A stretch of DNA of 51,533 nucleotides from a virus (lineage: Duplodnaviria; Heunggongvirae; Uroviricota; Caudoviricetes), in the IMG/VR virus record IMGVR_UViG_2711768018_000019; one strand, 5' to 3'. The position numbers and the translations under genes are program-made. Every line of letters begins with the position of its first letter. Positions within the stretch are counted from its first letter, which is position 1. The notes beneath the pieces are model-generated. The model saw only the letters and a program-made list of their open reading frames with translations, was not told the DNA's origin and searched no databases. Shown piece by piece: positions 3,792-47,873 of this stretch.

Positions 3792-4410
3792 TTTGCTGCT
3801 CCTAATCATATCGACCCTGCAAGGTCGGTTGGTTTCTCCACAAAACAGAGAAGAACACCTGCGGTGGCAGCCGCCCGGATGGATTTGGTTATGAGCCCGT
3901 CGTCCGGTGATGCTCTTCTCTGTTTTGTAAAAAGAGCGGTACCAGCCGGAAGCAAGTGTACAAACTGGTACCGCCAAAGCAGTGGCTGTTGTGGTGACCG
4001 GTGCTGATCTCCGGCTTGCGGTTATTTCAGACTCTCACGGGCGTTTAATTGCCCCGCCGAACAGCTCTTTTCCGCATTAGCTGCAATGTCTTTCGCGCAT
4101 CAGCCTGCGCATTCACCACAACGCTGAGAGCACTTAGCCAGTTACGGCACCACACTTTGTCGCGGTTCCATAAATGTCCTCATCGTTGCACCCTGGTCTC
4201 TTCCCAGGCGTCAAACCGAATCGCCACGCTGGTTAGGCGTCTTATCAGCATCATCATTGACTTGCACATTCCGGCTACCTGGTTTGTTTGCCCGAGCAAG
4301 GAGTGGATTGTCCCCTTTAACGTCCCCAGACCGCTAACGACGCATGTGCCATACGCCGTGTTACAACCAAATTTTGTTTAATCTTGCCTGTGCTGTGTTT
4401 CTTTTAGATA

Positions 4411-10598: not shown

Positions 10599-11594
10599 GT
10601 GACCGTGAGAGCACTACTGACCCCTGAAATTGCCCCGCGTATGGGGATCGTATTGTTCAGGCCAGGTTCAGAGCTGATGCCCCTGTTTATGCAGGGGCGT
10701 GTTCTGCTGGAGCCTGAGCCGGAACGTTATTCATCTTTCGCCAGTGGTGCCGTTCCGGCGGCATCACAACCGCTGGCGGATGATCCTGCCGTTCGGGCCG
10801 TGTTCCGCAATGAGGCAGTGATCCGTCGTGCTGGTGGCGTGGAATGTCTTGAAAGCTGGTTACTTCGTGAAAAAGGCTGCCAGTGGCCTCATTCCGACTG
10901 GCACAGCGAGAACATGACCACAATGCGACACGCTCCGGGCGCAATCCGTCTGTGCTGGCACTGCGATAACCAGCTGCGCGATCAGTTCACGGAACGGCTG
11001 GAATCAATGGCAACGGATAACTGTGCCCGCTGGGTGTTGTCTGTTGTGCGTCGGGATCTCGGTTTTGATGATAGTCACGTTGTGACAATGCCGGAACTGT
11101 GCTGGTGGCTGATTCGTAATGACCTGGCGGATGCCTTACCGGAAAGTGCAGCCCGTAAGGCACTGAGATTACCAAAGCCTGTTGTGCCGTCTGTCACCCG
11201 GGAAAGTGACCTTGTGCCTTCGGTTCCTGCCACCAGCATCATCCAGGATAAGGCAAAAAAGGTGCTGGCGCTGAAAGTGGATCCGGAGTCGCCGGAGTCT
11301 TTTATGTTACGCCCAAAACGCCGCCGCTGGGTTAATGAAAAGTACACGCGCTGGGTTAAGACACAGCCGTGTGCATGTTGTGGAAAGCCTGCTGATGATC
11401 CCCACCACCTGATAGGCCACGGTCAGGGTGGAATGGGTACAAAAGCGCATGACCTCTTTGTGTTGCCTTTGTGCAGAAAGCATCACGACGAGCTGCATGC
11501 GGATACCGTGGCATTTGAAGAGAAGTATGGCTCCCAGCTGGAGCTGATATTTCGTTTTATCGATCGTGCGCTGGCAATTGGCGTATTGGCGTAA
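10599..11594 (+). CDS. DUF968 (YdfU-like) nin-region protein with C-terminal HNH-like zinc motif
   Basis: 331 aa; C-terminal CACCGKPADDPHHLIGHGQGG ... CRKHHDELH. Position before Q matches YdfU in Qin-type prophages. Start codon uncertain (GTG per ORF track). Confidence 0.5.
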   Translation: MTVRALLTPEIAPRMGIVLFRPGSELMPLFMQGRVLLEPEPERYSSFASGAVPAASQPLADDPAVRAVFRNEAVIRRAGGVECLESWLLREKGCQWPHSDWHSENMTTMRHAPGAIRLCWHCDNQLRDQFTERLESMATDNCARWVLSVVRRDLGFDDSHVVTMPELCWWLIRNDLADALPESAARKALRLPKPVVPSVTRESDLVPSVPATSIIQDKAKKVLALKVDPESPESFMLRPKRRRWVNEKYTRWVKTQPCACCGKPADDPHHLIGHGQGGMGTKAHDLFVLPLCRKHHDELHADTVAFEEKYGSQLELIFRFIDRALAIGVLA

Positions 11595-11607
11595 GTGGAG
11601 AACGAGC

Positions 11608-12360
11608 ATGAACCTTGAAGCCTTACCAAAATATTACTCCCCAAAATCTCCAAAATTGAGCGATGACGCACCGGCGACAGGCTCAGGTGGTTTAACGATT
11701 ACGGATGTGATGGCTGCGCAGGGGATGGTGCAGTCGAAAGCACCGCTTGGGTTTGCCTTATTCCTGGCAAAAGTTGGTGTTCAGGATCCTCAATTTGCGA
11801 TTGAAGGTCTGCTCAATTACGCGATGGCACTGGATAACCCGACATTGAACAAATTGAGTGAAGAAACCCGGTTACAGATCATCCCTTACCTTGTGAATTT
11901 TGCCTTTGCTGATTATTCCAGGTCTGCGGCAAGTAAGGCTCGCTGTGAGCATTGTGCTGGTACTGGATTTCATAATGTATTGCGCGAAGTGGTGAAACAC
12001 TCCAGAAGCGGGGAATCTGTTATCAAGGAAGAGTGGGTGAAGGAACTATGTCAGCATTGCCATGGTAAGGGAGAAGTCAGCACAGCGTGCAGAGGGTGTA
12101 AGGGTAAAGGTATTGTCCTGGATGAAAAAAGAACCCGGCTTCATGGTGTGCCTGTTTATAAGATTTGTGGGCGTTGCAATGGCAACCGGTTTAGCCGTTT
12201 ACCAACCACACTGGCGCGGCATCATGTCCAGAAACTGGTACCGGACCTGACGGATTATCAGTGGTACAAAGGATATGCAGACGTTATTAATAAACTGGTT
12301 ACAAAGTGCTGGCAGGAAGAAGCGTATGCTGAATCGCAATTGAGAAAAGTGACAAGATAG
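11608..12360 (+). CDS. Q: Late-gene antiterminator Q
   Basis: 250 aa from the ATG at 11608 (RBS ggag). Cys-rich zinc-finger region (CEHCAGTG ... CQHCHGKG ... CRGCKGKG ... CGRCNG), followed by a promoter plus terminator as expected for PR'/tR'. Confidence 0.6.
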   Translation: MNLEALPKYYSPKSPKLSDDAPATGSGGLTITDVMAAQGMVQSKAPLGFALFLAKVGVQDPQFAIEGLLNYAMALDNPTLNKLSEETRLQIIPYLVNFAFADYSRSAASKARCEHCAGTGFHNVLREVVKHSRSGESVIKEEWVKELCQHCHGKGEVSTACRGCKGKGIVLDEKRTRLHGVPVYKICGRCNGNRFSRLPTTLARHHVQKLVPDLTDYQWYKGYADVINKLVTKCWQEEAYAESQLRKVTR

Positions 12361-12391
12361 ATAATTTTCGCCGAAGATGTCGACGTGATAC

Positions 12392-12420
12392 TTGCATTTT
12401 TCAAAAAATATGGATAAGAT
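12392..12420 (+). promoter_or_regulatory. Candidate PR' late promoter
   Basis: -35 TTGCAT (12392-12397), 17-nt spacer, -10 TAAGAT (12415-12420), located 30 nt after the Q stop and about 45 nt before the tR'-like terminator. Confidence 0.4.
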
Positions 12421-12463
12421 TTTCTCAACGATGGGCCTTGTATGTCTACCGTTGGTAAATGTC

Positions 12464-12492
12464 AAAAACCCGCCGCTGAGCGGGTTTTTTGT
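12464..12492 (+). terminator. tR'-like rho-independent terminator
   Basis: aaaaacccgccgctgagcgggttttttg: GC stem plus T-run. A near-identical copy lies at 13143-13170. Confidence 0.65.
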
Positions 12493-12639
12493 GCCTGATG
12501 TCTCATGAAACTATGAAATGGATTGGTGCGTTAAACATTTTTTCTTATTATCTTTTAGATTTTGGAGAGATGGTTAACGTCTGTATTCCAGAAACTCGAT
12601 GGTTATTTAATAAATTAGTTTCAATGATGCTTCTAGGTT

Positions 12640-13065
12640 ATGACTGTAATGAAAAAGGTATTAATAGCAGCGATAGGTTTTTGTTTAGTTGGTTGTGCAG
12701 GTATGAAATTACCTGAGTATTCGCAAGTTAAAGCAAGTCCGTATTATACAGATTGCCGTGCGTTTGCCATGGATGTTTATAAAAATGATGGATACAGCAA
12801 AATTGCGAAAACTACTATCCTTAGCATGGATGATGTGAAAGCTAGATATATTGTGACAGGGTGTGTAGTTGCTATGGGGAAAAACACTGTAGAGGAAATC
12901 AAAGCTGATCTCTCTGCTAAAGGGAGTTCTTTTGGGCTTATCAGTGGAGCTTGTTCTAGTGCGGCATGTCGGGTTGATGTAGAGCAGCAAATGAACGCTT
13001 ATGTACTTGGTAGTTATTATGCTGCAAATAAAAAATTCCCGGATAAAATGAAAGCAGAGTTTTAA
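12640..13065 (+). CDS. Lipoprotein moron
   Basis: Signal peptide with lipobox (MKKVLIAAIGFCLVGCAG). AT-rich relative to flanking phage genes; flanked by duplicated terminators. Start is 12640 or 12649. Confidence 0.6.
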   Translation: MTVMKKVLIAAIGFCLVGCAGMKLPEYSQVKASPYYTDCRAFAMDVYKNDGYSKIAKTTILSMDDVKARYIVTGCVVAMGKNTVEEIKADLSAKGSSFGLISGACSSAACRVDVEQQMNAYVLGSYYAANKKFPDKMKAEF

Positions 13066-13142
13066 GCAAACCTTGTTTTCGATTATATGTCGAAGATAAA
13101 TGTTAGTAACGGCATAATAAGTAAATATATAGCTGTGATAGC

Positions 13143-13170
13143 AACCCGCCACTGAGCGGGTTTTTTGTAC
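13143..13170 (+). terminator. Rho-independent terminator (second copy of the tR'-like element)
   Basis: aacccgccactgagcgggttttttgtacc, differing from the 12467-12495 copy at two positions. Confidence 0.6.
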
Positions 13171-13264
13171 CCGTAAACTTGGTGCAGTACAGTAAACACG
13201 CTGGTGGTCGTGAATACTGACTTTTTATCTTGCTGGCTTTTTAGACAAGAGTTATTGGTATGTC

Positions 13265-13492
13265 ATGTTAACCAGAAGGGAAAAAGACATGCTAAAACAG
13301 CAAGATATGACAGAAACCGCCGCCGCAGTCCTTCATTTCTTACCTGCTGACAAGTGGGTAACGCCACGCATGATGACGAGAACTACCGGAGTAAGCGAAG
13401 CCCGGTGCCAGTTAATACTGACTCAGTTAGTTCTGGCGGGTCTGGCGAAGGATAACGGCGGGTACGGGAATAAATTCAGACGCTGCCAGTAA
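13265..13492 (+). CDS. Small hypothetical protein (75 aa)
   Basis: ORF between the lipoprotein moron and the methyltransferase; no family recognised. Confidence 0.3.
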   Translation: MLTRREKDMLKQQDMTETAAAVLHFLPADKWVTPRMMTRTTGVSEARCQLILTQLVLAGLAKDNGGYGNKFRRCQ

Positions 13493-13642
13493 TGGCGGTT
13501 TCCTGCTGTGAAAATGGGCGGCTGGTGGGTGTTGGTAGCACCTGCCAGCCATTCGCTCATGCTTACTGGTCACAAGCGAACCACGGCCCACTGCTTTAGC
13601 GCAAAAGCAGAGTGAGCCTACCAGAGTTACGCTTACTGATCC

Positions 13643-14695
13643 ATGAAAAATACTGTAAAAATAAACAGTGTTGATTTAATCAACGCTGATTGCCTGCATT
13701 TTATTCAGTCCCTGCCTGATGATTCCATTGACCTGATTGTTACCGATCCGCCTTACTTCAAGGTGAAACCCAACGGTTGGGACAATCAGTGGAAAGGGGA
13801 CGAAGATTACCTTAAGTGGCTGGACCACTGTCTGGCCCAGTTCTGGCGGGTGTTGAAACCTGCCGGAAGCCTTTACCTGTTCTGTGGGCATCGCCTGGCA
13901 TCTGATATTGAGATCATGATGCGTGAACGTTTCAACGTGCTTAACCATATCATCTGGGCGAAGCCGTCCGGACGTTGGAATGGGTGTAATAAAGAAAGTC
14001 TGCGCGCATATTTTCCTGCCACAGAGCGCGTTCTGTTTGCTGAACATTACCAGGGGCCATATCGCGGCAAAAGTGACGGCTATGCGGCAAAAGAAAGGGA
14101 ACTCAAACAGCACATAATGGCACCGCTGATATCGTATTTCAGGGATGCTCGTGCCGAACTGGGTATAACGGCAAAACAAATTGCCGAAGCCACAGGTAAG
14201 AAAAATATGGTTTCCCACTGGTTTGGTGCCAGTCAGTGGCAGTTGCCGAATGAGGCTGACTATCGGAAGTTACAGGCACTGTTTTCCCGTATAGCGGCAG
14301 AGAAGTTTCAGGAACAACAACTGGAACAACCACACCACCAGCTGGTGGCATCTTATGATTCACTGAATCGTAAATATTCTGAATTGCTGGATGAGTTTAA
14401 ATCTCTCCGGCGCTATTTCTCCGTATCAGTCTCCGTGCCTTATACCGATGTCTGGATGCATAAACCCGTTCAGTTCTACCCGGGGAAACATCCGTGTGAG
14501 AAACCGGCGGATATGCTCAGGCAAATAATCAATGCCAGTAGTCGACCAGGTGATCTGGTTGCTGATTTTTTTATGGGATCCGGTTCCACAATAAAAGCAG
14601 CAATGGCGCTGGGGCGTCGGGCCTTAGGTGTTGAGCTTGAGTCAGAGCGGTTTAATCAGACAGTGAAAGAGATAAACGAGCTGGTGGGGAAATAA
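13643..14695 (+). CDS. DNA methyltransferase (DPPY-motif N6-adenine/N4-cytosine family), apparently orphan
   Basis: 350 aa. Motif [11 protein letters not shown] near the N-terminus, with a C-terminal SAM-binding region (DFFMGSGST) typical of beta-class amino-methyltransferases. No adjacent restriction endonuclease. Confidence 0.75.
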
Positions 14696-14699
14696 TCTG

Positions 14700-14726
14700 G
14701 TGGCCACGTCAGGTGGCCTTTTTATT
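14700..14726 (+). terminator. Hairpin terminator upstream of the lysis cassette
   Basis: ggccac gtcag gtggcc followed by tttttat. Confidence 0.4.
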
Positions 14727-30075: not shown

Positions 30076-30774
30076 ATGCAGGATATTCCACAGGAAACAC
30101 ATCATGAGACGACACGCCTCACTCAGTCAGCCCAGGTGGTGCTCTGGGAAATCGATCTGACAGAGGTCGGTGGAGAACGTTATTTTTTCTGTAATGAGCA
30201 GAACGAAAAAGGTGAGCCGGTCACCTGGCAGGGGCGACAGTATCAGGCGTATCCCATTCAGGGGACGGGATTTGAACTGAACGGCAAGGGCAGTGCTGCC
30301 CGTCCGACACTGACGGTTTCTAACCTGCACGGCATGGTCACCGGGATGGCGGAAGATCTGCAGAGTCTGGTCGGCGGAACGGTGGTCCGGCGTAAGGTTT
30401 ACGCCCGTTTTCTGGATGCGGTGAACTTCGTCAACGGAAACAGTGACGCCGATCCGGAGCAGGAGGTGATCAGCCGCTGGCGCATCGAGCAGTGCAGCGA
30501 ACTGAGCGCGGTGAGTGCCTCCTTTGTACTGTCCACGCCGACGGAAACGGATGGCGCTGTTTTTCCGGGGCGCATCATGCTGGCCAACACCTGCACCTGG
30601 ACCTATCGCGGCGATGAGTGCGGTTATCACGGTCCGGCGGTCGCGGATGAATATGATCAGCCGACGTCCGATATCACGAAGGATAAATGCAGCAAATGCC
30701 TGAGCGGCTGTAAGTTTCGCAATAACGTCGGCAACTTTGGCGGCTTCCTTTCCATTAACAAACTTTCGCAGTAA
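30076..30774 (+). CDS. L: Minor tail protein L (copy 1)
   Basis: 232 aa, near-identical to lambda gpL (VVLWEIDLTEVGGERYFFCNEQNEKGEPVTWQGRQYQ…). Confidence 0.9.
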   Translation: MQDIPQETHHETTRLTQSAQVVLWEIDLTEVGGERYFFCNEQNEKGEPVTWQGRQYQAYPIQGTGFELNGKGSAARPTLTVSNLHGMVTGMAEDLQSLVGGTVVRRKVYARFLDAVNFVNGNSDADPEQEVISRWRIEQCSELSAVSASFVLSTPTETDGAVFPGRIMLANTCTWTYRGDECGYHGPAVADEYDQPTSDITKDKCSKCLSGCKFRNNVGNFGGFLSINKLSQ

Positions 30775-30779
30775 ATCCC

Positions 30780-31523
30780 ATGACAGAGACAGAATCAGCG
30801 ATTCTGGCGCACGCCCGGCGATGTGCGCCAGCGGAGTCGTGCGGCTTCGTGGTGAGAACACCGGAGGGGGAAAGATATTTTCCCTGCGTGAATATCTCCG
30901 GTGAGCCGGAGGAGTATTTCCGGATGTCGCCGGAGGACTGGCTGCGGGCAGAGATGCAGGGTGAGATTGTGGCGCTGGTCCACAGCCACCCCGGTGGTCT
31001 GCCCTGGCTGAGTGAGGCCGACCGGCGGCTGCAGGTGCAGAGTGATTTGCCGTGGTGGCTGGTCTGCCGGGGGGCGATTCACAAGTTCCGCTGTGTGCCA
31101 CATCTTACCGGGCGGCGCTTTGAGCACGGGGTGACGGACTGTTACACGCTGTTCCGGGATGCTTACCATCTGGCGGGGATTGAGATGCCGGATTTTCATC
31201 GCGGGGATGACTGGTGGCGTCACGGTCAGAATCTCTATCTGGATAATCTGGAGGCTACAGGGCTGTATCAGGTGCCGTTGTCAGCGGCGCAGCCGGGCGA
31301 TGTGCTGCTGTGCTGTTTTGGTTCATCGGTGCCGAATCATGCCGCCATTTACTGTGGTGACGGCGAGCTGCTGCACCATATTCCTGAACAACTGAGCAAA
31401 CGAGAGAGGTATACCGACAAATGGCAGCGACGCACACACTCCCTCTGGCGTCACCGGGCATGGCACGCATCTGCCTTTACGGGGATTTACAACGATTTGG
31501 CCGCCGCATCGACCTTCGAGTGA
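30780..31523 (+). CDS. K: Tail tip assembly protein K (copy 1)
   Basis: MTETESAILAHARRCAPAESCGFVV ... HSHPGG (JAB/MPN-like) ... NlpC/P60-like C-terminus, as in lambda gpK. Confidence 0.9.
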   Translation: MTETESAILAHARRCAPAESCGFVVRTPEGERYFPCVNISGEPEEYFRMSPEDWLRAEMQGEIVALVHSHPGGLPWLSEADRRLQVQSDLPWWLVCRGAIHKFRCVPHLTGRRFEHGVTDCYTLFRDAYHLAGIEMPDFHRGDDWWRHGQNLYLDNLEATGLYQVPLSAAQPGDVLLCCFGSSVPNHAAIYCGDGELLHHIPEQLSKRERYTDKWQRRTHSLWRHRAWHASAFTGIYNDLAAASTFE

Positions 31524-32068
31524 AAACGGGGTCCGAAGCCATCCGGGCGCTGGCCATGCAGATCCCGGCGTTTCGTCAGAAACTGAATGAGGGCTGGTAT
31601 CAGGTGCGCATTGCCGGGCGTGATGCAGGCGAAAATGAATTATCTGCCCGTCTTAATGAGCCGCTGGCAAATGGTGCCGTGATCCACATCGTGCCGCGTC
31701 TGGCGGGAGCTAAAAGTGGCGGTGTGTTTCAGGTGGTGCTTGGGGCGGCGCTGATTGCGGTGGCATGGTGGAACCCTGTGGGCTGGCTGGGGGCCGCGGC
31801 TGTATCGGGCATGTATGCGGCAGGGGCCAGTATGATCCTGGGCGGAGTGGCGCAGATGCTGGCACCGAAAGCCAGGACGCCCACGGCAGCCAGTACAGAT
31901 AACGGCAAACAGAACACCTATTTCTCCTCACTGGATAACATGGTTGCCCAGGGCAATGTTCTGCCTGTTCTGTACGGTGAAATGCGCGTGGGGTCACGTG
32001 TGGTTTCTCAGGAGATCAGCACGGCAGACGAAGGGGATGGTGGTCAGGTTGTGGTGATTGGTCGCTGA
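31421..32068 (+). CDS. I: Tail assembly protein I (copy 1)
   Basis: MAATHTLPLASPGMARICLYGDLQRFGRRIDLRVKTG ... matches lambda gpI; overlaps the 3' end of K. Confidence 0.85.
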   Translation: MAATHTLPLASPGMARICLYGDLQRFGRRIDLRVKTGSEAIRALAMQIPAFRQKLNEGWYQVRIAGRDAGENELSARLNEPLANGAVIHIVPRLAGAKSGGVFQVVLGAALIAVAWWNPVGWLGAAAVSGMYAAGASMILGGVAQMLAPKARTPTAASTDNGKQNTYFSSLDNMVAQGNVLPVLYGEMRVGSRVVSQEISTADEGDGGQVVVIGR

Positions 32069-32128
32069 TGCAAAATGTTTTATGTGAAACCGCCTCCGGG
32101 CGGTTTTGTCGTTTATGGAGCGTGAGGA

Positions 32129-34124
32129 ATGGGTAAAGGCAGCAGTAAGGGGCATACCCCGCGCGAAGCAAAGGACAACCTGAAGTCCACGCAGTTGCTG
32201 AGTGTGATCGATACCATCAGCGAAGGGCCGGTTGAAGGTCCGGTGGATGGATTAAAAAGCGTGCTGCTGAACAGTACACCGGTGCTGGACAGTGAGGGGA
32301 ATACCAACATCTCTGGTGTCACGGTGGTGTTCCGGGCAGGTGAGCAGGAACAGACACCGCCGGAGGGATTTGAATCATCAGGTTCCGAGACGGTACTGGG
32401 TACGGAAGTGAAATACGACACGCCGATCACCCGGACCATCACGTCGGCAAACATTGACCGACTGCGTTTTACCTTCGGTGTACAGGCACTGGTGGAAACC
32501 ACCTCAAAGGGAGACAGGAATCCGTCTGAAGTTCGCCTGCTGGTTCAGATACAGCGTAACGGTGGCTGGGTGACGGAAAAAGACATCACCATTAAGGGCA
32601 AAACCACCTCGCAGTATCTGGCCTCGGTGGTGGTGGGTAACCTGCCGCCGCGCCCGTTCAATATACGGATGCGCAGGATGACGCCGGACAGCACCACAGA
32701 CCAGCTGCAGAACAAAACGCTCTGGTCGTCATACACCGAAATCATCGATGTGAAACAGTGCTACCCGAACACGGCACTGGTCGGCGTGCAGGTGGATTCG
32801 GAGCAGTTCGGCAGCCAGCAGGTGAGCCGTAATTATCATCTGCGCGGGCGCATTCTGCAGGTGCCGTCGAGCTATAACCCGCAGACGCGGCAATACAGCG
32901 GTATCTGGGACGGAACGTTTAAGCCAGCATACAGCAACAACATGGCCTGGTGTCTGTGGGATATGCTGACCCATCCGCGCTACGGCATGGGGAAACGTCT
33001 TGGTGCGGCGGATGTGGACAAATGGGCGCTGTATGTCATCGGCCAGCATTGCGATCAGTCGGTGCCGGACGGTTTTGGCGGCACGGAGCCGCGCATCACC
33101 TGTAATGCGTACCTGACCACACAGCGCAAGGCGTGGGATGTGCTCAGTGATTTCTGCTCGGCGATGCGCTGTATGCCGGTATGGAACGGGCAGACGCTGA
33201 CGTTCGTGCAGGACCGACCGTCGGATAAGGTGTGGACCTATAACCGCAGTAATGTGGTGATGCCGGATGATGGTGCGCCGTTCCGCTACAGCTTCAGCGC
33301 CCTGAAGGACCGCCATAATGCCGTTGAGGTGAACTGGATTGACCCGAATAACGGCTGGGAGACGGCGACAGAGCTTGTGGAGGACACGCAGGCCATTGCC
33401 CGTTACGGTCGTAACGTCACGAAGATGGATGCTTTTGGCTGTACCAGCCGGGGGCAGGCACACCGCGCCGGGCTGTGGCTGATTAAAACAGAACTGCTGG
33501 AAACGCAGACCGTGGACTTCAGCGTGGGTGCCGAAGGGCTTCGCCATGTACCGGGCGATGTCATTGAAATCTGCGATGATGACTATGCCGGTATCCGCAC
33601 CGGCGGGCGCGTGCTGGCGGTAAACAGCCAGACCCGGACGCTGACGCTCGACCGTGAAATCACGCTGCCATCTTCCGGCACCACGCTGATAAGCCTGGTT
33701 GACGGGCAGGGGAGTCCGGTCAGCGTGGAGGTTCAGTCCGTCACCGACGGCGTGAAGGTGAAAGTGAGCCGTGTTCCTGACGGCGTTGCTGAATACAGCG
33801 TATGGGGGCTGAAGCTGCCGACGCTGCGCCAGCGCCTGTTCCGCTGCGTGAGTATCCGTGAGAACGACGACGGCACGTATGCCATCACTGCCGTGCAGCA
33901 TGTACCGGAAAAAGAGGCCATCGTGGATAACGGGGCGCACTTTGACGGCGACCAGAGCGGCACGGTAAATGGTGTCACGCCGCCAGCGGTGCAGCACCTG
34001 ACCGCAGAAGTCACCGCAGACAGCGGGGAATACCAGGTGCTGGCCCGCTGGGACACGCCGAAGGTGGTGAAGGGCGTGAGCTTCCTGCTTCGCCTGACCG
34101 TGGCAGCGGATGACGGCCGTGAGC
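32129..34124 (+). CDS. J: Tail tip/host-specificity protein J (copy 1), 3' end lost in an assembly gap
   Basis: MGKGSSKGHTPREAKDNLKSTQLLSVIDTISEGPVEGPVDGLKSVLLNSTPVLDSEGNTNISGV ... matches lambda gpJ; the coding sequence runs into the N-run at 34125. Confidence 0.85.
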
Positions 34125-34374
34125 NNNNNNNNNNNNNNNNNNNNNNNNNNNNNNNNNNNNNNNNNNNNNNNNNNNNNNNNNNNNNNNNNNNNNNNNNNNN
34201 NNNNNNNNNNNNNNNNNNNNNNNNNNNNNNNNNNNNNNNNNNNNNNNNNNNNNNNNNNNNNNNNNNNNNNNNNNNNNNNNNNNNNNNNNNNNNNNNNNNN
34301 NNNNNNNNNNNNNNNNNNNNNNNNNNNNNNNNNNNNNNNNNNNNNNNNNNNNNNNNNNNNNNNNNNNNNNNNNN
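34125..34374. other. Assembly gap (250 N)
   Basis: Run of n characters in the sequence. Confidence 1.
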
Positions 34375-34375
34375 G

Positions 34376-35209
34376 AGCGATACCGAAGCGTCACGGCTGA
34401 AATATACCGAAGAGGCGCAGAAGGCTTACGAACGGCTGCAGACGCCGCTGGAGAAATATACCGCCCGTCAGGAAGAACTGAACAAGGCACTGAAAGACGG
34501 GAAAATCCTGCAGGCGGATTACAACACGCTGATGGCGGCGGCGAAAAAGGATTATGAAGCGACGCTGAAAAAGCCGAAACAGTCCGGCGTGAAGGTGTCT
34601 GCGGGCGATCGTCAGGAAGACAGTGCTCATGCTGCCCTGCTGACGCTTCAGGCAGAACTCCGGACGCTGGAGAAGCATGCCGGAGCGAATGAGAAAATCA
34701 GCCAGCAGCGCCGGGATTTGTGGAAGGCAGAAAGTCAGTTCGCGGTACTGGAGGAGGCGGCACAACGTCGCCAGCTGTCCGCACAGGAGAAATCCCTGCT
34801 GGCGCATAAAGACGAGACGCTGGAGTACAAACGCCAGCTGGCTGCACTTGGTGACAAGGTTACGTATCAGGAGCACCTGAATGCGCTGGCGCAGCAGGCG
34901 GATAAATTCGCACAGCAGCAACGGGCAAAACGGGCAGCCATTGATGCGAAAAACCGGGGGCTGACTGACCGGCAGGCAGCGCGGGAAGCCACGGAACAGC
35001 GTCTGAAGGAACAGTATGGCGATAATCCGCTGGCGCTGAATAACGTCATGTCAGAGCAGAAAAAGACCTGGGCGGCTGAAGACCAGCTTCGCGGGAGCTG
35101 GATGGCAGGCCTGAAGTCCGGCTGGAGTGAGTGGGAAGAGAGCGCCACGGACAGTATGTCACAGGTTAAAAGTGCAGCCACGCAGACCTTTGATGGTATT
35201 GCACAGAAT
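34376..35209 (+). CDS. H: Tape-measure protein H, internal fragment of a second lambda-like copy, bounded by gaps
   Basis: SDTEASRLKYTEEAQKAYERLQTPLEKYTARQEELNKALKDGKILQADYNTLMAAAKKDYE ... matches the middle of lambda gpH, sitting between two N-runs. Confidence 0.8.
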
Positions 35210-35514
35210 NNNNNNNNNNNNNNNNNNNNNNNNNNNNNNNNNNNNNNNNNNNNNNNNNNNNNNNNNNNNNNNNNNNNNNNNNNNNNNNNNNNNNNNNNNN
35301 NNNNNNNNNNNNNNNNNNNNNNNNNNNNNNNNNNNNNNNNNNNNNNNNNNNNNNNNNNNNNNNNNNNNNNNNNNNNNNNNNNNNNNNNNNNNNNNNNNNN
35401 NNNNNNNNNNNNNNNNNNNNNNNNNNNNNNNNNNNNNNNNNNNNNNNNNNNNNNNNNNNNNNNNNNNNNNNNNNNNNNNNNNNNNNNNNNNNNNNNNNNN
35501 NNNNNNNNNNNNNN
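35210..35514. other. Assembly gap (305 N)
   Basis: Run of n characters. Confidence 1.
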
Positions 35515-35811
35515 TTTGTCTTCACGAAGGAGGCAACCAGCCGGATTGGCGTGGGGAATCTCTACCGGCTGATGCGCGGCTATGCGGAAGGTGGTTATGT
35601 GGGCGGTGCCGGAAGTCCGGCGCAGATGCGGCGGGCTGAAGGCATTAATTTTAATCAGAACAATCACGTGGTGATTCAGAACGACGGTACGAATGGTCTG
35701 CCAGGTCCACAGATGATGAAGGCCGTGTATGACATGGCCCGCAAGGGTGCCCGTGATGAAATTCAGACACAGATGCGTGATGGTGGCCTGTTCTCCGGAG
35801 GTGGACGATGA
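35515..35811 (+). CDS. H: Tape-measure protein H, C-terminal fragment (copy 2)
   Basis: FVFTKEATSRIGVGNLYRLMRGYAEGGYVG ... IQTQMRDGGLFSGGGR matches the lambda gpH C-terminus; stop overlaps the ATG of M'. Confidence 0.8.
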   Translation, partial: FVFTKEATSRIGVGNLYRLMRGYAEGGYVGGAGSPAQMRRAEGINFNQNNHVVIQNDGTNGLPGPQMMKAVYDMARKGARDEIQTQMRDGGLFSGGGR

Positions 35812-36137
35812 AAACCTTCCGCTGGAAAGTGAAACCCGGTATGGATGTGGCTTCGGCCCCTTCTGTAAGAAAGGTGCGCTTTGGTGATGGCTATTCCCAG
35901 CGAGCGCCTGCCGGGCTGAATGCCAACCTGAAAACGTACAGCGTGACGCTTTCTGTCCCCCGTGAGGAGGCCATGGTACTGGAGTCGTTTCTGGAAGAGC
36001 ACGGGGGCTGGAAAGCCTTTCTGTGGACGCCGCCTTATGAGTGGCGGCAGATAAAGGTGACCTGCGCAAAATGGTCGTCGCGGGTCAGTATGCTGCGTGT
36101 TGAGTTCAGCGCAGAGTTTGAACAGGTGGTGAACTGA
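35808..36137 (+). CDS. M: Minor tail protein M (copy 2, lambda-type)
   Basis: MKTFRWKVKPGMDVAS ... FEQVVN; closer to lambda gpM than copy 1 is. Confidence 0.9.
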   Translation: MKTFRWKVKPGMDVASAPSVRKVRFGDGYSQRAPAGLNANLKTYSVTLSVPREEAMVLESFLEEHGGWKAFLWTPPYEWRQIKVTCAKWSSRVSMLRVEFSAEFEQVVN

Positions 36138-36835
36138 TGCAGGATATCCGGCAGGAAACACTGAATGAATGCACCCGTGCGGAGCAGTCGGCCAGCGTGG
36201 TGCTCTGGGAAATCGATCTGACAGAGGTCGGTGGAGAACGTTATTTTTTCTGTAATGAGCAGAACGAAAAAGGTGAGCCGGTCACCTGGCAGGGGCGACA
36301 GTATCAGCCGTATCCCATTCAGGGGAGTGGTTTTGAACTGAATGGCAAAGGCACCAGTACGCGCCCCACGCTGACGGTTTCTAACCTGTACGGTATGGTC
36401 ACCGGGATGGCGGAAGATATGCAGAGTCTGGTCGGCGGAACGGTGGTCCGGCGTAAGGTTTACGCCCGTTTTCTGGATGCGGTGAACTTCGTCAACGGAA
36501 ACAGTGACGCCGATCCGGAGCAGGAGGTGATCAGCCGCTGGCGCATTGAGCAGTGCAGCGAACTGAGCGCGGTGAGTGCCTCTTTTGTACTGTCCACGCC
36601 GACGGAAACAGATGGCGCTGTTTTTCCGGGACGTATCATGCTGGCCAACACCTGCACCTGGACCTATCGCGGCGATGAGTGCGGTTATCACGGTCCGGCG
36701 GTCGCGGATGAATATGACCAGCCAACGTCCGACATCACGAAGGATAAATGCAGCAAATGCCTGAGTGGCTGTAAGTTTCGCAATAACGTCGGCAACTTTG
36801 GCGGCTTCCTTTCCATTAACAAACTTTCGCAGTAA
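36137..36835 (+). CDS. L: Minor tail protein L (copy 2)
   Basis: Near-identical to copy 1 and to lambda gpL. Confidence 0.9.
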   Translation: MQDIRQETLNECTRAEQSASVVLWEIDLTEVGGERYFFCNEQNEKGEPVTWQGRQYQPYPIQGSGFELNGKGTSTRPTLTVSNLYGMVTGMAEDMQSLVGGTVVRRKVYARFLDAVNFVNGNSDADPEQEVISRWRIEQCSELSAVSASFVLSTPTETDGAVFPGRIMLANTCTWTYRGDECGYHGPAVADEYDQPTSDITKDKCSKCLSGCKFRNNVGNFGGFLSINKLSQ

Positions 36836-36840
36836 ATCCC

Positions 36841-37261
36841 ATGACAGAGACAGAATCAGCGATTCTGGCGCACGCCCGGCGATGTGCTCCAGCGGAGTCG
36901 TGCGGCTTCGTGGTAAGAACGCCGGAGGGGGAAAGATATTTCCCCTGCGTGAATATCTCCGGTGAGCCGGAGGCGTATTTCCGTATGTCGCCGGAAGACT
37001 GGCTGCAGGCAGAGATGCAGGGTGAGATTGTGGCACTGGTCCACAGCCACCCCGGTGGTCTGCCCTGGCTGAGTGAGGCCGACCGGCGGCTGCAGGTGCA
37101 GAGTGATTTGCCGTGGTGGCTGGTCTGCCGGGGGGCGATTCACAAGTTCCGCTGTGTGCCACATCTTACCGGGCGGCGCTTTGAGCACGGGGTGACGGAC
37201 TGTTACACGCTGTTCCGGGATGCTTACCATCTGGCGGGGATTGAGATGCCGGATTTTCATC
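36841..37261 (+). CDS. K: Tail protein K (copy 2), N-terminal part, truncated by a gap
   Basis: Identical in organisation to copy-1 K up to ...GIEMPDFH, then the N-run. Confidence 0.8.
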
Positions 37262-37498
37262 NNNNNNNNNNNNNNNNNNNNNNNNNNNNNNNNNNNNNNN
37301 NNNNNNNNNNNNNNNNNNNNNNNNNNNNNNNNNNNNNNNNNNNNNNNNNNNNNNNNNNNNNNNNNNNNNNNNNNNNNNNNNNNNNNNNNNNNNNNNNNNN
37401 NNNNNNNNNNNNNNNNNNNNNNNNNNNNNNNNNNNNNNNNNNNNNNNNNNNNNNNNNNNNNNNNNNNNNNNNNNNNNNNNNNNNNNNNNNNNNNNNNN
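37262..37498. other. Assembly gap (237 N), flanked by near-identical 114-bp segments
   Basis: Sequence 37148-37261 and 37499-37612 are the same K-gene segment with about 6 substitutions, i.e. overlapping contig ends from non-identical alleles. Confidence 1.
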
Positions 37499-38173
37499 TT
37501 CCGCTGTGTGCCGCATCTCACCGGGCGGCGCTTTGAGCACGGGGCGACGGACTGTTACACGCTGTTCCGGGATGCTTATCATCTGGCTGGGATTGAGATG
37601 CCGGATTTTCATCGCGGGGATGACTGGTGGCGTAACGGTCAGAATCTCTATCTGGATAATCTGGAGGCCACAGGGCTGTATCAGGTGCGTATTGCCGGGC
37701 AGGATGTTAGCACGTCCGGATTAACGGCACAGTTACATGAGGCTCTGCCTGACGGCGCTGTGATTCATATTGTTCCCAGAGTCGCCGGGGCCAAGTCAGG
37801 TGGTGTATTCCAGATTGTCCTGGGAGCAGCCGCCATTGCCGGATCATTCTTTACCGCCGGAGCCACCCTTGCAGCATGGGGGGCTGCCATTGGTGCCGGT
37901 GGTATGACCGGCATTCTGTTTTCTCTCGGTGCCAGTATGGTGCTCGGCGGTGTGGCTCAGATGCTGGCACCGAAAGCCAGAACTCCCCGCACACAGACAA
38001 CGGATAACGGTAAGCAGAACACCTATTTCTCCTCACTGGATAACATGGTTGCCCAGGGCAATGTTATGCCTGTTCTGTATGGTGAAATGCGCGTGGGGTC
38101 ACGTGTGGTATCTCAGGAGATCAGCACGGCAGACGAAGGGGACGGTGGTCAGGTTGTGGTGATTGGTCGCTGA
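37499..38173 (+). CDS. In-frame K-I hybrid ORF (K segment joined to lambda-type gpI at a shared YQV codon stretch)
   Basis: ...LEATGLYQV|RIAGQDVSTSGLTAQLHEALPDGAVIHIVPRVAGAKSGG...: the K C-terminus and I N-terminus are missing relative to copy 1. The I part matches lambda gpI more closely than copy 1 does. Confidence 0.6.
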   Translation, partial: FRCVPHLTGRRFEHGATDCYTLFRDAYHLAGIEMPDFHRGDDWWRNGQNLYLDNLEATGLYQVRIAGQDVSTSGLTAQLHEALPDGAVIHIVPRVAGAKSGGVFQIVLGAAAIAGSFFTAGATLAAWGAAIGAGGMTGILFSLGASMVLGGVAQMLAPKARTPRTQTTDNGKQNTYFSSLDNMVAQGNVMPVLYGEMRVGSRVVSQEISTADEGDGGQVVVIGR

Positions 38174-38233
38174 TGCAAAATGTTTTATGTGAAATCGCCT
38201 CCGGGCGGTTTTATCGTTTATGGAGCATGACGA

Positions 38234-39593
38234 ATGGGTAAAGGCAGCAGTAAGGGGCATACCCCGCGCGAAGCGAAGGACAACCTGAAGTCCACGCAGC
38301 TGCTGAGTGTGATCGATGCCATCAGCGAAGGGCCGGTTGAAGGTCCGGTGGATGGATTAAAAAGCGTGCTGCTGAACAGTACGCCGGTGCTGGACAGTGA
38401 GGGGAATACCAACATCTCCGGCGTCACGGTGGTGTTCCGGGCAGGTGAGCAGGAGCAGTCACCGCCGGAGGGATTTGAATCCTCCGGCTCCGAGACGGTG
38501 CTGGGTACGGAAGTGAAATATGACACGCCGATCACCCGGACCATCACGTCGGCAAACATTGACCGACTGCGTTTTACCTTCGGTGTACAGGCACTGGTGG
38601 AAACCACCTCAAAGGGGGACAGGAATCCATCGGAAGTCCGCCTGCTGGTTCAGATACAGCGTAACGGTGGCTGGGTGACGGAAAAAGACATCACCATTAA
38701 GGGCAAAACCACCTCGCAGTATCTGGCCTCGGTGGTGGTGGATAACCTGCCGCCGCGCCCGTTTAATATCCGGATGCGCAGAATGACGCCGGACAGCACC
38801 ACAGACCAGCTGCAGAACAAAACGCTCTGGTCGTCATACACCGAAATCATCGATGTGAAACAGTGCTACCCGAACACGGCACTGGTCGGCGTACAGGTGG
38901 ATTCGGAGCAGTTCGGCAGCCAGCAGGTGAGCCGTAATTATCATCTTCGCGGGCGCATTCTGCAGGTGCCGTCGAACTATAATCCGCAGACGCGGCAATA
39001 CAGCGGTATCTGGGACGGAACGTTAAAACCGGCATACAGCAACAACATGGCCTGGTGTCTGTGGGATATGCTGACCCATCCGCGCTATGGCATGGGGAAA
39101 CGTCTTGGTGCGGCAGATGTGGATAAATGGGCGCTGTATGTCATCGGCCAGTACTGTGACCAGTCGGTGCCGGACGGCTTTGGCAGCACGGAGCCGCGCA
39201 TCACCTGTAATGCCTGGCTGACCACACAGCGCAAGGCGTGGGATGTGCTCAGTGATTTCTGCTCGGCGATGCGCTGTATGCCGGTATGGAACGGGCAGAC
39301 GCTGACGTTCGTGCAGGACCGACAGTCGGATAAGGTGTGGGCCTATAACCGCAGTAATGTGGTGATGCCGGATGATGGCGCGCCGTTCCGCTACAGTTTC
39401 AGCGCCCTGAAAGACCGCCATAATGCCGTTGAGGTGAACTGGATTGACCCGGATAACGGCTGGGAGACGGCGACAGAGCTTGTGGAGGATACGCAGGCCA
39501 TTGTCCGTTACGGTCGTAACGTCACGAAGATGGATGCCTTTGGCTGTACCAGCCGGGGGCAGGCACACCGCGCCGGGCTGTGGCTGATTAAAA
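38234..39593 (+). CDS. J: Tail protein J (copy 2), N-terminal part up to a gap
   Basis: Near-identical to copy-1 J and to lambda gpJ; interrupted by an N-run. Confidence 0.85.
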
Positions 39594-39915
39594 NNNNNNN
39601 NNNNNNNNNNNNNNNNNNNNNNNNNNNNNNNNNNNNNNNNNNNNNNNNNNNNNNNNNNNNNNNNNNNNNNNNNNNNNNNNNNNNNNNNNNNNNNNNNNNN
39701 NNNNNNNNNNNNNNNNNNNNNNNNNNNNNNNNNNNNNNNNNNNNNNNNNNNNNNNNNNNNNNNNNNNNNNNNNNNNNNNNNNNNNNNNNNNNNNNNNNNN
39801 NNNNNNNNNNNNNNNNNNNNNNNNNNNNNNNNNNNNNNNNNNNNNNNNNNNNNNNNNNNNNNNNNNNNNNNNNNNNNNNNNNNNNNNNNNNNNNNNNNNN
39901 NNNNNNNNNNNNNNN
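39594..39915. other. Assembly gap (322 N)
   Basis: Run of n characters. Confidence 1.
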
Positions 39916-39917
39916 CT

Positions 39918-40353
39918 GAATACAGCGTGTGGGGGCTGAAGCTGCCGACGCTGCACCAGCGATTGTTCCGCTGCGTGAGTATCCGTGAGAACGACGACGG
40001 CACGTATGCCATCACCGCCGTGCAGCATGTGCCGGAAAAAGAAGCCATCGTGGATAACGGGGCGCACTTTGACGGCGACCAGAGCGGCACGGTGAATGGT
40101 GTCACGCCGCCAGCGGTGCAGCACCTGACTGCCGAAGTCACCGCAGACAGCGGGGAATATCAGGTGCTGGCGCGCTGGGACACGCCGAAGGTGGTGAAGG
40201 GCGTGAGCTTCCTGCTCCGTCTGACCGTAACAGCGGATGACGGCAGTGAGCGGCTGGTCAGCACGGCCCGGACGACGGAAACCACTTACCGCTTCACACA
40301 ACTGGCGCTGGGGAACTACAGGCTGACAGTCCGGGCAGTAAATGCGTGGGGGC
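39918..40353 (+). CDS. J: Tail protein J (copy 2), middle fragment
   Basis: EYSVWGLKLPTLHQRLFRCVSIRENDDGTYAITAVQHVPEKEAIVDNGAHFDG... matches the lambda gpJ central region. Confidence 0.85.
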
Positions 40354-40396
40354 NNNNNNNNNNNNNNNNNNNNNNNNNNNNNNNNNNNNNNNNNNN
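40354..40396. other. Assembly gap (43 N)
   Basis: Run of n characters. Confidence 1.
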
Positions 40397-40398
40397 CC

Positions 40399-41673
40399 CC
40401 GGCAGCGCCGTCGCGGATTGAGCTGACGCCGGGCTATTTTCAGATAACCGCCACGCCGCATCTTGCGGTTTATGACCCGACGGTACAGTTTGAGTTCTGG
40501 TTCTCGGAAAAACGGATTGCGGATATCAGGCAGGTTGAAACCAGCGCGCGTTATCTTGGTACGGCACTGTACTGGATAGCCGCCAGTATCAATATCAAAC
40601 CGGGCCATGATTATTACTTTTATATCCGCAGTGTGAACACCGTCGGCAAATCAGCATTCGTGGAGGCTGTCGGTCGGGCGAGCGATGATGCGGAAGGTTA
40701 CCTGGATTTTTTCAAAGGCCAGATAACCGAATCCCATCTCGGCCAGGAGCTGCTGGAAAAAGTCGACCTGACGGAGGATAACGCCAGCAGACTGGAGGAG
40801 TTTTCGAAAGAGTGGAAGGACGCCAACGATAAGTGGAATGCCATGTGGGGCGTCAAAATTGAGCAGACCAAAGACGGCAAACATTATGTCGCGGGTATTG
40901 GCCTCAGCATGGAGGACACGGAGGAAGGCAAACTGAGCCAGTTTCTGGTTGCCGCTAACCGTATCGCGTTTATTGACCCGGCAAACGGGAATGAAACGCC
41001 GATGTTTGTGGCGCAGGGCAACCAGATATTCATGAATGACGTGTTCCTGAAACGCCTGACGGCTCCCACCATTACCAGCGGTGGAAATCCGCCGGCATTT
41101 TCCCTGACACCAGACGGAAAGCTGACCGCTAAAAATGCGGATATCAGCGGTAATGTGAATGCAAATTCAGGGACGCTCAACAATGTCACGATTAACCAGA
41201 ACTGTACGATTAAGGGCATGCTGGAGGCGACCCAGGTCAGAGGAGATTTCGTTAAAGCTGTATCAAAAGCCTTCCCGAAAAAAGTCGGTACGTGGGGTAA
41301 CACGGAAACACCAAACGGTACGGTTACAGTCACCATCAGCGATGATCATAACTTTGACCGCCAGATTATTATTCCGCCCATTATTTTTAACGGTATAGCG
41401 TATGACGATCCGGGGAGCGGAAATAACCCAGGAGGCACGCGATACACGGGTTATGGTTTTGAAGTTCGCAAAAACGGCGTATTAATCGCATCCAGAGAAA
41501 CTAAAGGGGCCATTCCCGGTAGTTACAGTGCAGTTATTGATATGCCGAGTGGCAGGGGAAGCGTCACTCTGGAGTTTAAGATTTTCCAGAAAGGCAATCA
41601 GGGGGCAGGCAATATCACCGACTGTACGGTGATTGTGACCAAAAAAGCCGCTTCCGGCATCAGTATTCGTTGA
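40399..41673 (+). CDS. J: Tail protein J (copy 2), C-terminal receptor-binding part
   Basis: [38 protein letters not shown] ... [10 protein letters not shown] matches the lambda gpJ C-terminus. Confidence 0.85.
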
Positions 41674-46502: not shown

Positions 46503-47873
46503 CTATGATATCCCTGAAATGTCCTCTTCAAGCTCTTTTACTGATTTCGCAATTTTAAATTTAAATTTTCTCTCTATTTCACTATTGCTAAGTTTTTTTT
46601 CATTCTCTTTCCCTATCCACATAGAAACAATTTCTCGTTTCTGAGATATATGTAGATTGTCAAAGTTAGGTATGTATTTAAAAGTCTCCGCTCTACCCCT
46701 GCGGAGTTCATAGAAAGTTTTAATCAAAGACTTTGGTTTTATTTCTGATGAAAGGCCGAATCGGCGGATAAGATTATTGATCGTATGATTAACAGCTCGA
46801 AGTTGAGCTGTTGACGTTATTTGTGAGAAGTACGATACCCATCCCAATCGTTTACCTTCAAACACACATCCCGTAATTCTAAGATTTAGTTTCCACTGAC
46901 AATATGCAACAGCTCGTTCTTTATCGCGCTTATTTTTAGCTTGTAGTAGAGCGTGTCTATATGCAGTAAAAATTTTTGCTAAGGATGACTCAAATCTAAG
47001 AATGCTCTCATGTTTTATCAATAATTCTCGATTTTTTATGTGGTAGCCCAAAAAGTTGAAACTTTCATCCAAGCTGCCTACTTTGGATTTTGAGTTCTCT
47101 TCATTTAATGGATGTGGGTTTAAATTTAATGATTGAAGCTTATCAATGATATGAGAAGCTATTTTTGTTGCTTGATATTTTGGTGTTAAAATAAGAATGT
47201 CATCAACGTATCGCATGTACCATATGTCATGCATTTTATTGATTTCATCATCGAAATTAGATAGTGATATTTCAGCTAAAATGTTTGATATCGCTAATCC
47301 CTGAGGTACTCCTCTGGTATTATTAGGGATACCTTTGCTTCCTGTGGTTCCACTTACAGTAGGCACGATTAATGATGATGTTATTAACTGTCTAATTTCT
47401 TTTTTTCTAATTTTATTTTTTATTGCATTAATTATCAATTTATGTTCAATTGAAGGATAGAAACTTTTAAGATCTATTTTTGCATATTCAGCATATAGAC
47501 TGTTGTTTAATGCTTCTTTCAATGAGTCAATTACTGTATGTGGTAGTTTTAATCTGGACTTAGGATATATTTCCGTAAGGCATTCACAGAGAGCTCTAAG
47601 AGTAATTCTGTCCCTAGCAGTTGGTATGGAAATCTGTCTGGGTGTAGAGTTAGCGCCTTTAGATATTAATTTTTCTTTATATGCTGTAAATTTGTAATTG
47701 CCAGAATTAACCTTTTCAAAAATGAAAGTGATCTCATTTTTTATTGTCAAATCAAGTTTTGATGGGCGAATCCGATCTATGCCAATCGCTCCTGATTCTT
47801 TGATTTTTTCAGAGTATACTTTTAGAAGATTTTTTTTCGAGAATGACTTTTTAAAAATTCTGCTTGCAGTCAT
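46503..47873 (-). CDS. Reverse transcriptase (defence-associated, retron/UG/Abi-like; unclassified)
   Basis: 456 aa from the ATG at 47873..47871. RT motifs: RQISIPTARDRI (motif 1), AKIDLKSFYPSI (motif 2), RGVPQGLAISNILAEI (QG motif), YMRYVDDILIL (YxDD active site), FLGYHI (thumb). AT-rich; start overlaps the upstream gene's 3' end. Confidence 0.8.
   Translation of the reverse strand: MTASRIFKKSFSKKNLLKVYSEKIKESGAIGIDRIRPSKLDLTIKNEITFIFEKVNSGNYKFTAYKEKLISKGANSTPRQISIPTARDRITLRALCECLTEIYPKSRLKLPHTVIDSLKEALNNSLYAEYAKIDLKSFYPSIEHKLIINAIKNKIRKKEIRQLITSSLIVPTVSGTTGSKGIPNNTRGVPQGLAISNILAEISLSNFDDEINKMHDIWYMRYVDDILILTPKYQATKIASHIIDKLQSLNLNPHPLNEENSKSKVGSLDESFNFLGYHIKNRELLIKHESILRFESSLAKIFTAYRHALLQAKNKRDKERAVAYCQWKLNLRITGCVFEGKRLGWVSYFSQITSTAQLRAVNHTINNLIRRFGLSSEIKPKSLIKTFYELRRGRAETFKYIPNFDNLHISQKREIVSMWIGKENEKKLSNSEIERKFKFKIAKSVKELEEDISGIS

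Follow-up and report, generated by a model that had tools for sequence, protein, structure and literature searches.

The window analysed here, the 51,533-nt viral stretch IMGVR_UViG_2711768018_000019 in its full length, is a lambda-like prophage with a gpA-type terminase, a lambda-type tape measure and the tail genes L and J. Downstream of its antiterminator gene Q it carries a 676-bp AT-rich cassette that holds a lipoprotein gene and is bounded by two near-identical copies of an intrinsic terminator. We propose, at a probability of roughly 0.7, that this cassette is a self-contained moron lodged in the untranslated leader of the Q-dependent late operon and expressed by the steps set out below. 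From the Q stop codon onwards the order is a promoter, the -10-like element AACGATGGG, the first terminator (T1), a 153-nt AT-rich leader, the lipoprotein open reading frame (ORF), a 77-nt AT-rich trailer and the second terminator (T2). Morons are defined by a promoter and terminator of their own, a deviant GC content and absence from relatives (PMC3594210). The cassette is precisely absent from close relatives, its GC content is 0.32–0.39 against about 0.48–0.56 in the flanks, and a predicted terminator lies directly downstream of the gene.

The presence/absence unit spans 12496–13171 on the plus strand (equally 12467–13142). The region from Q through the cassette to the methylase is found at 98% identity in phages mEp460 and Ayreon and in 15 Stx2c phage records, and phiSTEC1575-Stx2k carries Q, cassette and T2 at 97%, with a different module in place of the methylase. 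Phages SfV and vB_EcoM-720R4 (720R4) share Q, the PR' leader and the downstream genes with the window, have a single terminator and lack exactly the 676-bp unit, and 19 IMG/VR contigs likewise show one terminator and no cassette; these are the relatives without the insert with which the initial annotation had suggested a comparison. Two terminators without the gene were not seen in relatives: every two-copy locus has them 676–677 nt apart and is this cassette. The ORF, earlier taken for an added gene, is indeed no core gene of the phage. Of 5426 complete E. coli genomes, 215 (about 4%) have the cassette with any flanks and 168 with the flanks of the window, while 186 carry the empty junction, and homologues occur in other contexts. 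The AT-rich 3' untranslated stretch behind the gene (13066–13142, plus strand) is in all filled sites and in none of the empty ones; beyond 13073 it is unlike the Salmonella orthologue.

How the cassette came or went could be read from one contig, L038, which is the exact empty counterpart of the window. It matches at 100% over 10600–12495 and at 99.55% over 13143–14700, and the two matches overlap by exactly the 29-nt terminator repeat; the flanks of the empty sites in SfV, 720R4 and L038 are 97–100% identical to the window. The single terminator of L038 is chimeric, with the T1 loop and GTGCC followed by the CGTAAAC tail of T2. From this exact overlap and the chimeric terminator we conclude that the cassette was gained or lost by recombination within the repeat. 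Any single event may have been either a gain or a loss. Across 29 viral contigs most empty sites are T2-like, as would be expected if the cassette was inserted upstream of a resident T2, or if it was deleted with the crossover on the left. The initial annotation had the cassette inserted by recombination at the terminator, duplicating it in the process; recombination in the repeat stands, given L038 and the other empty sites, and duplication is plausible and inseparable from a copy borne by the cassette itself.

A Salmonella prophage showed how far back the arrangement may reach. Its Q is of another type (PF06530/DUF1133); behind it come homologues of T1, the leader and the lipoprotein gene (73% over 12463–13073) and, after the gene, a diverged second terminator with a different loop (CCCGCATTGCGCGGG); both of its terminators end in the common tail TTTTTGTAYCYGAAAC. 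The order terminator, lipoprotein gene, terminator and methylase at 73–74% identity indicates that the arrangement is old and that Q was swapped at the terminator. The Salmonella methylase is a 3' remnant (L004:5484–5780, 74% to window 14368–14664), and the 75-aa ORF and the 5' part of the methylase are deleted there.

At somewhat less than even odds, the filled state is ancestral, the empty phages are deletions by recombination or slippage between the terminators, and the cassette was not recently inserted. The age of the Salmonella arrangement, with synonymous sites saturated, speaks for this, as does the single T2 allele common to all filled haplotypes. So does L038, with window-specific alleles on both sides of a T1-body/T2-tail chimera, as a T1 × T2 crossover predicts. 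On the other hand, the GC content of the cassette is foreign to its flanks, the lipoprotein gene is found in unrelated contexts, and the SfV-type and 720R4-type empty alleles differ 3' of the T-run, as old alleles would. Some original insertion would still be needed.

The terminator marks a border in other prophages as well. E. coli matches to the window often stop in the T-run of T1 (about 12488–12494), including those of K-12 strains, where the match lies under ydfT, and many others start exactly at the first base of T2, 13143. An ST131 strain (L011) has a different Q type and two reverse-strand genes joined to the same terminator and downstream module. Strain VE-V10-F (L010) has an unrelated 176-aa gene between the T1 hairpin and the T-run, ending in a hairpin of its own. 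Judging by these junctions, the terminator appears to be a common joint in lambdoid phages, at which different Q modules are linked to different downstream cargo. A much wider claim, which we think improbable, would make it a portable homology patch of about 22–30 nt at which unrelated phages swap Q modules or cargo, with cassettes gained and precisely lost through twin copies as a general route of moron mobility, and with the lipoprotein founding a new envelope-acting family for lysogenic conversion or exclusion whose fold has no relative. As to the alternative cargo itself, neither the reverse-strand genes of 182 and 308 aa (L011:900–2530) nor the 176-aa gene (L010:1560–2230) has a Pfam or PADLOC match.

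To what extent the two terminators are copies of one another was assessed from their sequences and from their distribution. T1 (12467–12495, plus strand; AACCCGCCGCTGAGCGGGTTTTTTGTGCC) and T2 (13143–13171, plus strand; AACCCGCCACTGAGCGGGTTTTTTGTACC) each consist of a hairpin and a T-run and form a 29-nt direct repeat, identical at 27/29 positions (93%, 2 mismatches) with a spacing of 676 nt. This is the sole long direct repeat of the region, and the 22-nt core, allowing up to 2 mismatches, occurs at just these two sites in the window (expected 0.00 from 100 shuffles). Hairpin folding with the U-run gave -13.9 kcal/mol for T1 and -13.3 kcal/mol for T2. The repeat search and the folding agree with the initial annotation on a tR'-like terminator and a second copy with 2 mismatches, and its PR'-like promoter upstream of T1 was also located after Q. 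A simple terminator scan listed T2 and missed T1; our guess is that the T1 stem can run on into its own T-run (AAAAACCCGC/GCGGGUUUUU). A terminator is annotated at the T1 position in SfV and Ayreon, and the Ayreon record has both. T2 is predicted 77 nt 3' of the lipoprotein stop codon, and all 12 cassette 3' junctions found in IMG/VR have a T2 with loop A and a GTACC tail.

The core of the repeat is widespread. The exact 22-mer CCCGCC[AG]CTGAGCGGGTTTTTT was found in at least 120 viral contigs, in 53 distinct upstream and 58 distinct downstream contexts among the matches listed and at a locus GC of 0.41–0.65; these contigs have in common a loosely conserved tail, nTGCCTGRA. A control pattern with another loop, CCCGCCRTCGAGCGGGTTTTTT, gave at least 120 matches with unrelated flanks (IMG/VR loci L014–L133 and L152–L230 for the two patterns together), CCCGCCTGRCAGCGGGTTTTTT gave 14, and CCCGCAGTCRCGCGGGTTTTTT gave 0 in viral contigs. 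From the at least 120 matches to both the core and CCCGCCRTCGAGCGGGTTTTTT we conclude that terminators of the form CCCGCC...GAGCGGG-T6 are generically common in phages. The E. coli trp terminator is also built in this way. An Rfam search over 12200–13400 returned nothing above the gathering score, and the sub-threshold matches (Trp_leader, Leu_leader and isrK) are merely the terminator hairpin. The core may recur either because phages converged on a good terminator or because it spread as a linker for recombination.

It is therefore possible, if doubtful, that there was no duplication at all and that the cassette came with its own very common terminator or arose beside one, T1 and T2 being alike by class. 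Besides the occurrence of the core in more than 50 unrelated contexts, the bases by which the 29-nt identity exceeds the core (AA in front, GTRCC behind) recur often in the class too, the Salmonella post-gene terminator has its different loop, and the L010 cargo carries its own, different hairpin. Against this, of the other two loop permutations one matched only 14 times and the other not at all, so the sequence is not arbitrary; the empty sites have exactly one copy, the L038 chimera shows that the copies recombine as homologues, and the tail TTTTTGTAYCYGAAAC is common to both Salmonella terminators. An origin of this kind would alter the history of the element alone, not its nature or working. 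A longer duplication, hinted at by the SfV tail GTGCCTTGATGT in comparison with GTGCCTGATGT of T1, overlaps the generic consensus tail and was not relied on.

The gene inside the cassette (12649–13065, plus strand) encodes a 138-aa precursor (PHROG 4748, WP_000217632.1). The ORF itself extends over 12640–13065 and its alternative ATG at 12640 is the annotated start; we place the start at the conserved ATG 12649, since ATC stands at the position equivalent to 12640 in the Salmonella orthologue. As read from the sequence, the signal peptide and lipobox occupy 12649–12696 (plus strand), with the precursor beginning MKKVLIAAIGFCLVG/CAG, the lipobox LVG/C, the codon of Cys16 at 12694–12696 and Ala at +2. 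A basic N-terminus, a hydrophobic core and a lipobox of the form [LVI][ASTVI][GAS]C are all present, as in signal peptidase II substrates. In an alignment of 8 homologues (55–77% identity) Gly15 and Cys16 are invariant, likewise C36, C72, C102 and C107; the residue before the lipobox Gly-Cys is V, A or T, and the +2 residue is Ala, with Ser in one homologue. Pairwise dN/dS was 0.08–0.22, with saturation of synonymous sites between the E. coli and Salmonella copies. Given this dN/dS and the invariant lipobox and four cysteines, the gene is real, old and under strong purifying selection. The AT-rich composition, the ORF and the LVGC lipobox were all as first described. Another 75-aa ORF (12489–12716, plus strand; phrog_37626) overlaps the leader and the start of the lipoprotein gene in a different frame, and is probably an annotation artefact that has spread among mEp460-like records.

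The AlphaFold2 model of the protein has a mean pLDDT of 84, with five helices and a small hairpin, residues 1–17 being disordered. On this model the mature product, about 122 aa, is likely a compact domain of five helices and about 13 kDa, probably with two disulfides. Lipoproteins without Asp at +2 are sorted to the outer membrane under the Lol rule. With Ala at +2, the product should reach the outer membrane via the Lol pathway.

We then asked how large the family is and where else it occurs. It comprises 11 clusters at 90% identity among 5.8 billion sequences, and a profile search returned 8 representatives among 1.84 billion proteins; the named members are all from Escherichia, Salmonella or Buttiauxella (Enterobacteriaceae). 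The only PHROG matches were phrog_4748 and phrog_8068, both of unknown function. The lipoprotein matched no Pfam family at E ≤ 0.01, no NCBIfam model and no PADLOC defence model at E ≤ 0.1, in line with the initial remark that it belongs to no recognised family. None of the 8 members matched the Bor-type Pfam family at E ≤ 10, the PDB held no sequence relative, and fold searches of BFVD and the PDB gave no match at E ≤ 0.001 and nothing informative. None of the papers searched mentions the accession WP_000217632.1, a look for transcript data on it found none, and searches on the protein and mEp460 gave no functional data. Homologues in other settings have only the ORF in common: they lie in a Rac-like early region, at a site in the chromosome close to blc and a type II secretion cluster, at a locus adjoining insertion sequences, and on a 111-kb Buttiauxella plasmid with phage-like replication genes (gp32 and DNA polymerase III alpha) that is probably a phage-plasmid. 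Across these settings the gene appears to work alone and to move. A further chromosomal homologue (L135:4001–4425), flanked by carB and a ROK-family kinase gene, is broken into ORFs of 90 and 63 aa and is apparently a frameshifted pseudogene.

The leader into which the cassette is set has the anatomy of a Q-dependent late operon. The Q gene (11608–12360, plus strand) belongs to the YdfT/Q82-type family (Pfam PF03589 Antiterm, E 5.2e-54), encodes a DnaJ-type CXXCXGXG zinc motif, and is labelled ydfT/antitermination protein in an identical region of E. coli PK8217. Behind it lies a predicted PR'-like late promoter (12392–12420, plus strand), with TTGCAT at 12392–12397, a 17-nt spacer and TAAGAT at 12415–12420; it ranks second among the sigma-70-like sites of 12380–12660, with a score of 8.5, and the PR' block is unchanged across Ayreon, 720R4 and SfV. 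Directly after it, at the predicted transcript start, we read the -10-like element AACGATGGG (12427–12435, plus strand), and the same AACGATGGGC stands 5' of this terminator in other viral contigs (L034, L035, L092 and L125). We link the element to the lambda PR' pause element, reportedly described by Ring, Yarnell and Roberts in 1996. By its sequence and position, AACGATGGG probably causes sigma-70-dependent promoter-proximal pausing for Q loading. Q of the PF03589 family, the promoter, AACGATGGG and the T1 hairpin are all kept in SfV, 720R4 and Ayreon.

A second promoter is predicted inside the cassette, at 12523–12551 (plus strand), with TTGGTG at 12523–12528, a 17-nt spacer and TATTAT at 12546–12551; its score of 9.8 is the best in the leader. 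The best sigma-70-like site of the Salmonella orthologue, TTGGTA-18-TATCAT with a score of 10.1, occupies the corresponding position. E. coli and Salmonella agree at 68.5% of the leader from T1 to the start codon, compared with only about 32% at synonymous sites. It is this conserved leader and promoter position that lead us to propose a promoter of the cassette's own.

The expression of the cassette may be pictured as follows. In the lysogen, polymerase starting from PR' would pause at AACGAT and, without Q, would stop at T1, leaving a leader RNA of about 65 nt. The separate promoter at 12523–12551, of weak to moderate sigma-70 type, would drive the lipoprotein gene, and T2 would end this moron transcript before the genes for the DNA methylase, holin, endolysin and spanin. 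The cargo could thus be expressed from a repressed prophage without setting off lysis. After induction, Q-modified polymerase would pass T1, the cassette and T2 into the late genes, and the lipoprotein gene would then be transcribed late as well. The product would be exported, lipidated at Cys16 and sorted by Lol to the outer membrane on account of Ala at +2. Our best guess is that it would alter the envelope to the benefit of the lysogen, for instance by shutting out an arriving phage or toxin, or through Bor-like protection; a protective role in the envelope is favoured because of the analogy with Cor, Llp and Bor, families in which our searches did not place it.

Several points weigh against this picture. 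The -35 of the predicted promoter fits the consensus at only 3/6 positions and a standard scan misses the promoter, and the lipoprotein gene may be expressed from the late transcript only. The terminator core is generic, so T1 and T2 need not stem from a local duplication; the whole 29-nt identity falls within the common phage motif and is therefore no proof of one. In addition, cor and llp adjoin tail or receptor-binding genes, whereas the lipoprotein gene is not linked to such genes, lying about 20 kb from the J-type tail-tip genes and having its homologues in non-tail contexts, which weakens a receptor-blocking role.

If the first of these points is taken further, the lipoprotein would be a late-operon function, such as an accessory to lysis or release, with no promoter of its own and made only with active Q. 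The gene does lie inside the Q-dependent unit, upstream of holin, endolysin and spanin, the Salmonella copy is likewise between a Q gene and lysis genes, and the predicted promoter is weak by consensus. We nevertheless regard this as unlikely, as about half of otherwise near-identical prophages lack the gene, homologues sit in a Rac-like early region, in the chromosome and on a phage-plasmid without lysis genes nearby, and the leader and its promoter-like site are conserved. Moreover, both Q-linked contexts come from one ancestral arrangement and hence are not independent evidence, and a terminator right behind the gene would be expected chiefly of an autonomous unit. That the cassette is a small transposable element with the repeats as its target-site duplication was rejected as very improbable: the insert is flanked by direct repeats and has a 15-nt inverted repeat of 87% complementarity near its ends (12537–12551 and 13114–13128), but the 676 bp hold no transposase or recombinase and the lipoprotein gene as the only conserved ORF, the inverted repeat is AT-rich, imperfect and internal rather than terminal, a 29-nt duplication is far above known target-site duplications, and homologues elsewhere have the ORF alone in common.

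A self-contained moron thus remains our preferred description, and it can be set beside known systems. Like the lambdoid morons (HK97 gene 15, HK022; Juhala/Hendrix definition, PMC3594210), it is an extra gene with exact borders, deviant GC, a terminator after it and a predicted promoter before it, sitting between two normal elements of a phage transcription unit. It differs in that the tR'-like terminator of the operon itself, in two copies, flanks it and that it lies in the late-operon leader and not among tail genes; its expression in the prophage is predicted. The leader resembles the lambda PR'-6S RNA-tR' region, and that of phage 82 and YdfT-type Q, in having Q, a promoter, an AACGAT pause-type element and a strong intrinsic terminator before the late genes. 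Unlike lambda, its Q is of PF03589 and not of the lambda Q family, the leader RNA is about 65 nt, and a second terminator follows the cargo gene.

The initial annotation had placed the cassette at the position of bor and stx. For stx this holds: the cassette occupies the same site between Q and the lysis genes, and in phiSTEC1575-Stx2k the identical cassette lies between Q and the tRNA and stx2 genes, upstream of stx2. Unlike stx, which relies mainly on Q-dependent read-through, the cassette would be insulated by terminators on both sides, and its product is no toxin. The bor part does not hold, as bor lies after Rz on the opposite strand, beyond the lysis genes. Lambda Bor/Iss is alike in being a small prophage lipoprotein and accessory cargo near the late or lysis region; it has no sequence match (E ≤ 10) to this protein, which is predicted to be all-helical, whereas Bor is beta-rich. 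Cor (phi80, N15, HK022) and Llp (T5) are small phage outer-membrane lipoproteins with disulfides that act alone, properties that are here predicted. The protein has no PHROG, Pfam or fold similarity to them, and at about 122 aa its mature form is larger than Cor and Llp (about 60–80 aa). Superinfection exclusion is the most common known role for lipoprotein genes of this kind.

In sum of its features the cassette is a typical moron and occupies the known cargo site behind Q; it is present in phages already sequenced, where its product is annotated only as a hypothetical protein. What is new is modest: a well-defined orphan lipoprotein family, exact pairs of filled and empty haplotypes, and a terminator that doubles as a recombination joint. 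Carriers of the cassette include avian-pathogenic and human E. coli isolates and Stx2c and Stx2k phages, where it stands on the route of transcription from Q to stx2. As an orphan protein under selection, the product is a cheap and well-defined candidate for a phenotype screen (phage exclusion, resistance to serum, bile or colicin, envelope stress), for which the natural filled/empty pairs with near-identical flanks offer ready isogenic comparisons. If the protein turned out to have no phenotype, this would be one more uncharacterised moron. The terminator as joint provides a small, concrete case of how mosaic borders are placed in lambdoid phages.

Further genes and candidates were noted around the cassette and elsewhere in the window. 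Downstream of T2 follow a 75-aa ORF, an N6/N4 DNA methylase, a P21-type holin, a DUF1327 gene, a lysozyme-like ORF and an Rz-like ORF; methylase, holin and DUF1327 were assigned by Pfam, and the last two were judged from their translations. The 75-aa ORF (13265–13492, plus strand; phrog_331, function unknown), between T2 and the methylase, is kept in filled and empty phages, and a related gene at its position in phiSTEC1575-Stx2k is annotated as a TrmB-family regulator. A 193-nt ArcA-modulated small RNA, sRNA-17, has been described from an mEp460-like prophage of E. coli K1 RS218 (PMC7719688). Its placement inside the cassette was rejected, as its 5' part has an exact match at 3936–3956 (plus strand), in the early region of the window. 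On the minus strand, 46503–48402 encodes a reverse transcriptase (PADLOC RT_UG17, E 1e-158) and an adjoining SLATT-type effector (E 1.5e-56), by PADLOC match a DRT-type anti-phage defence pair, next to the integrase gene (48934–50031). Finally, the tail-tip region (30076–41673, plus strand) looks duplicated: a J-like ORF of 1147 aa (32129–35572), with an unusual stretch resembling a tape measure close to the C-terminus, is followed by another tail L gene at 36137–36835, and J is split into ORFs at 38234–39919 and 40342–41673.

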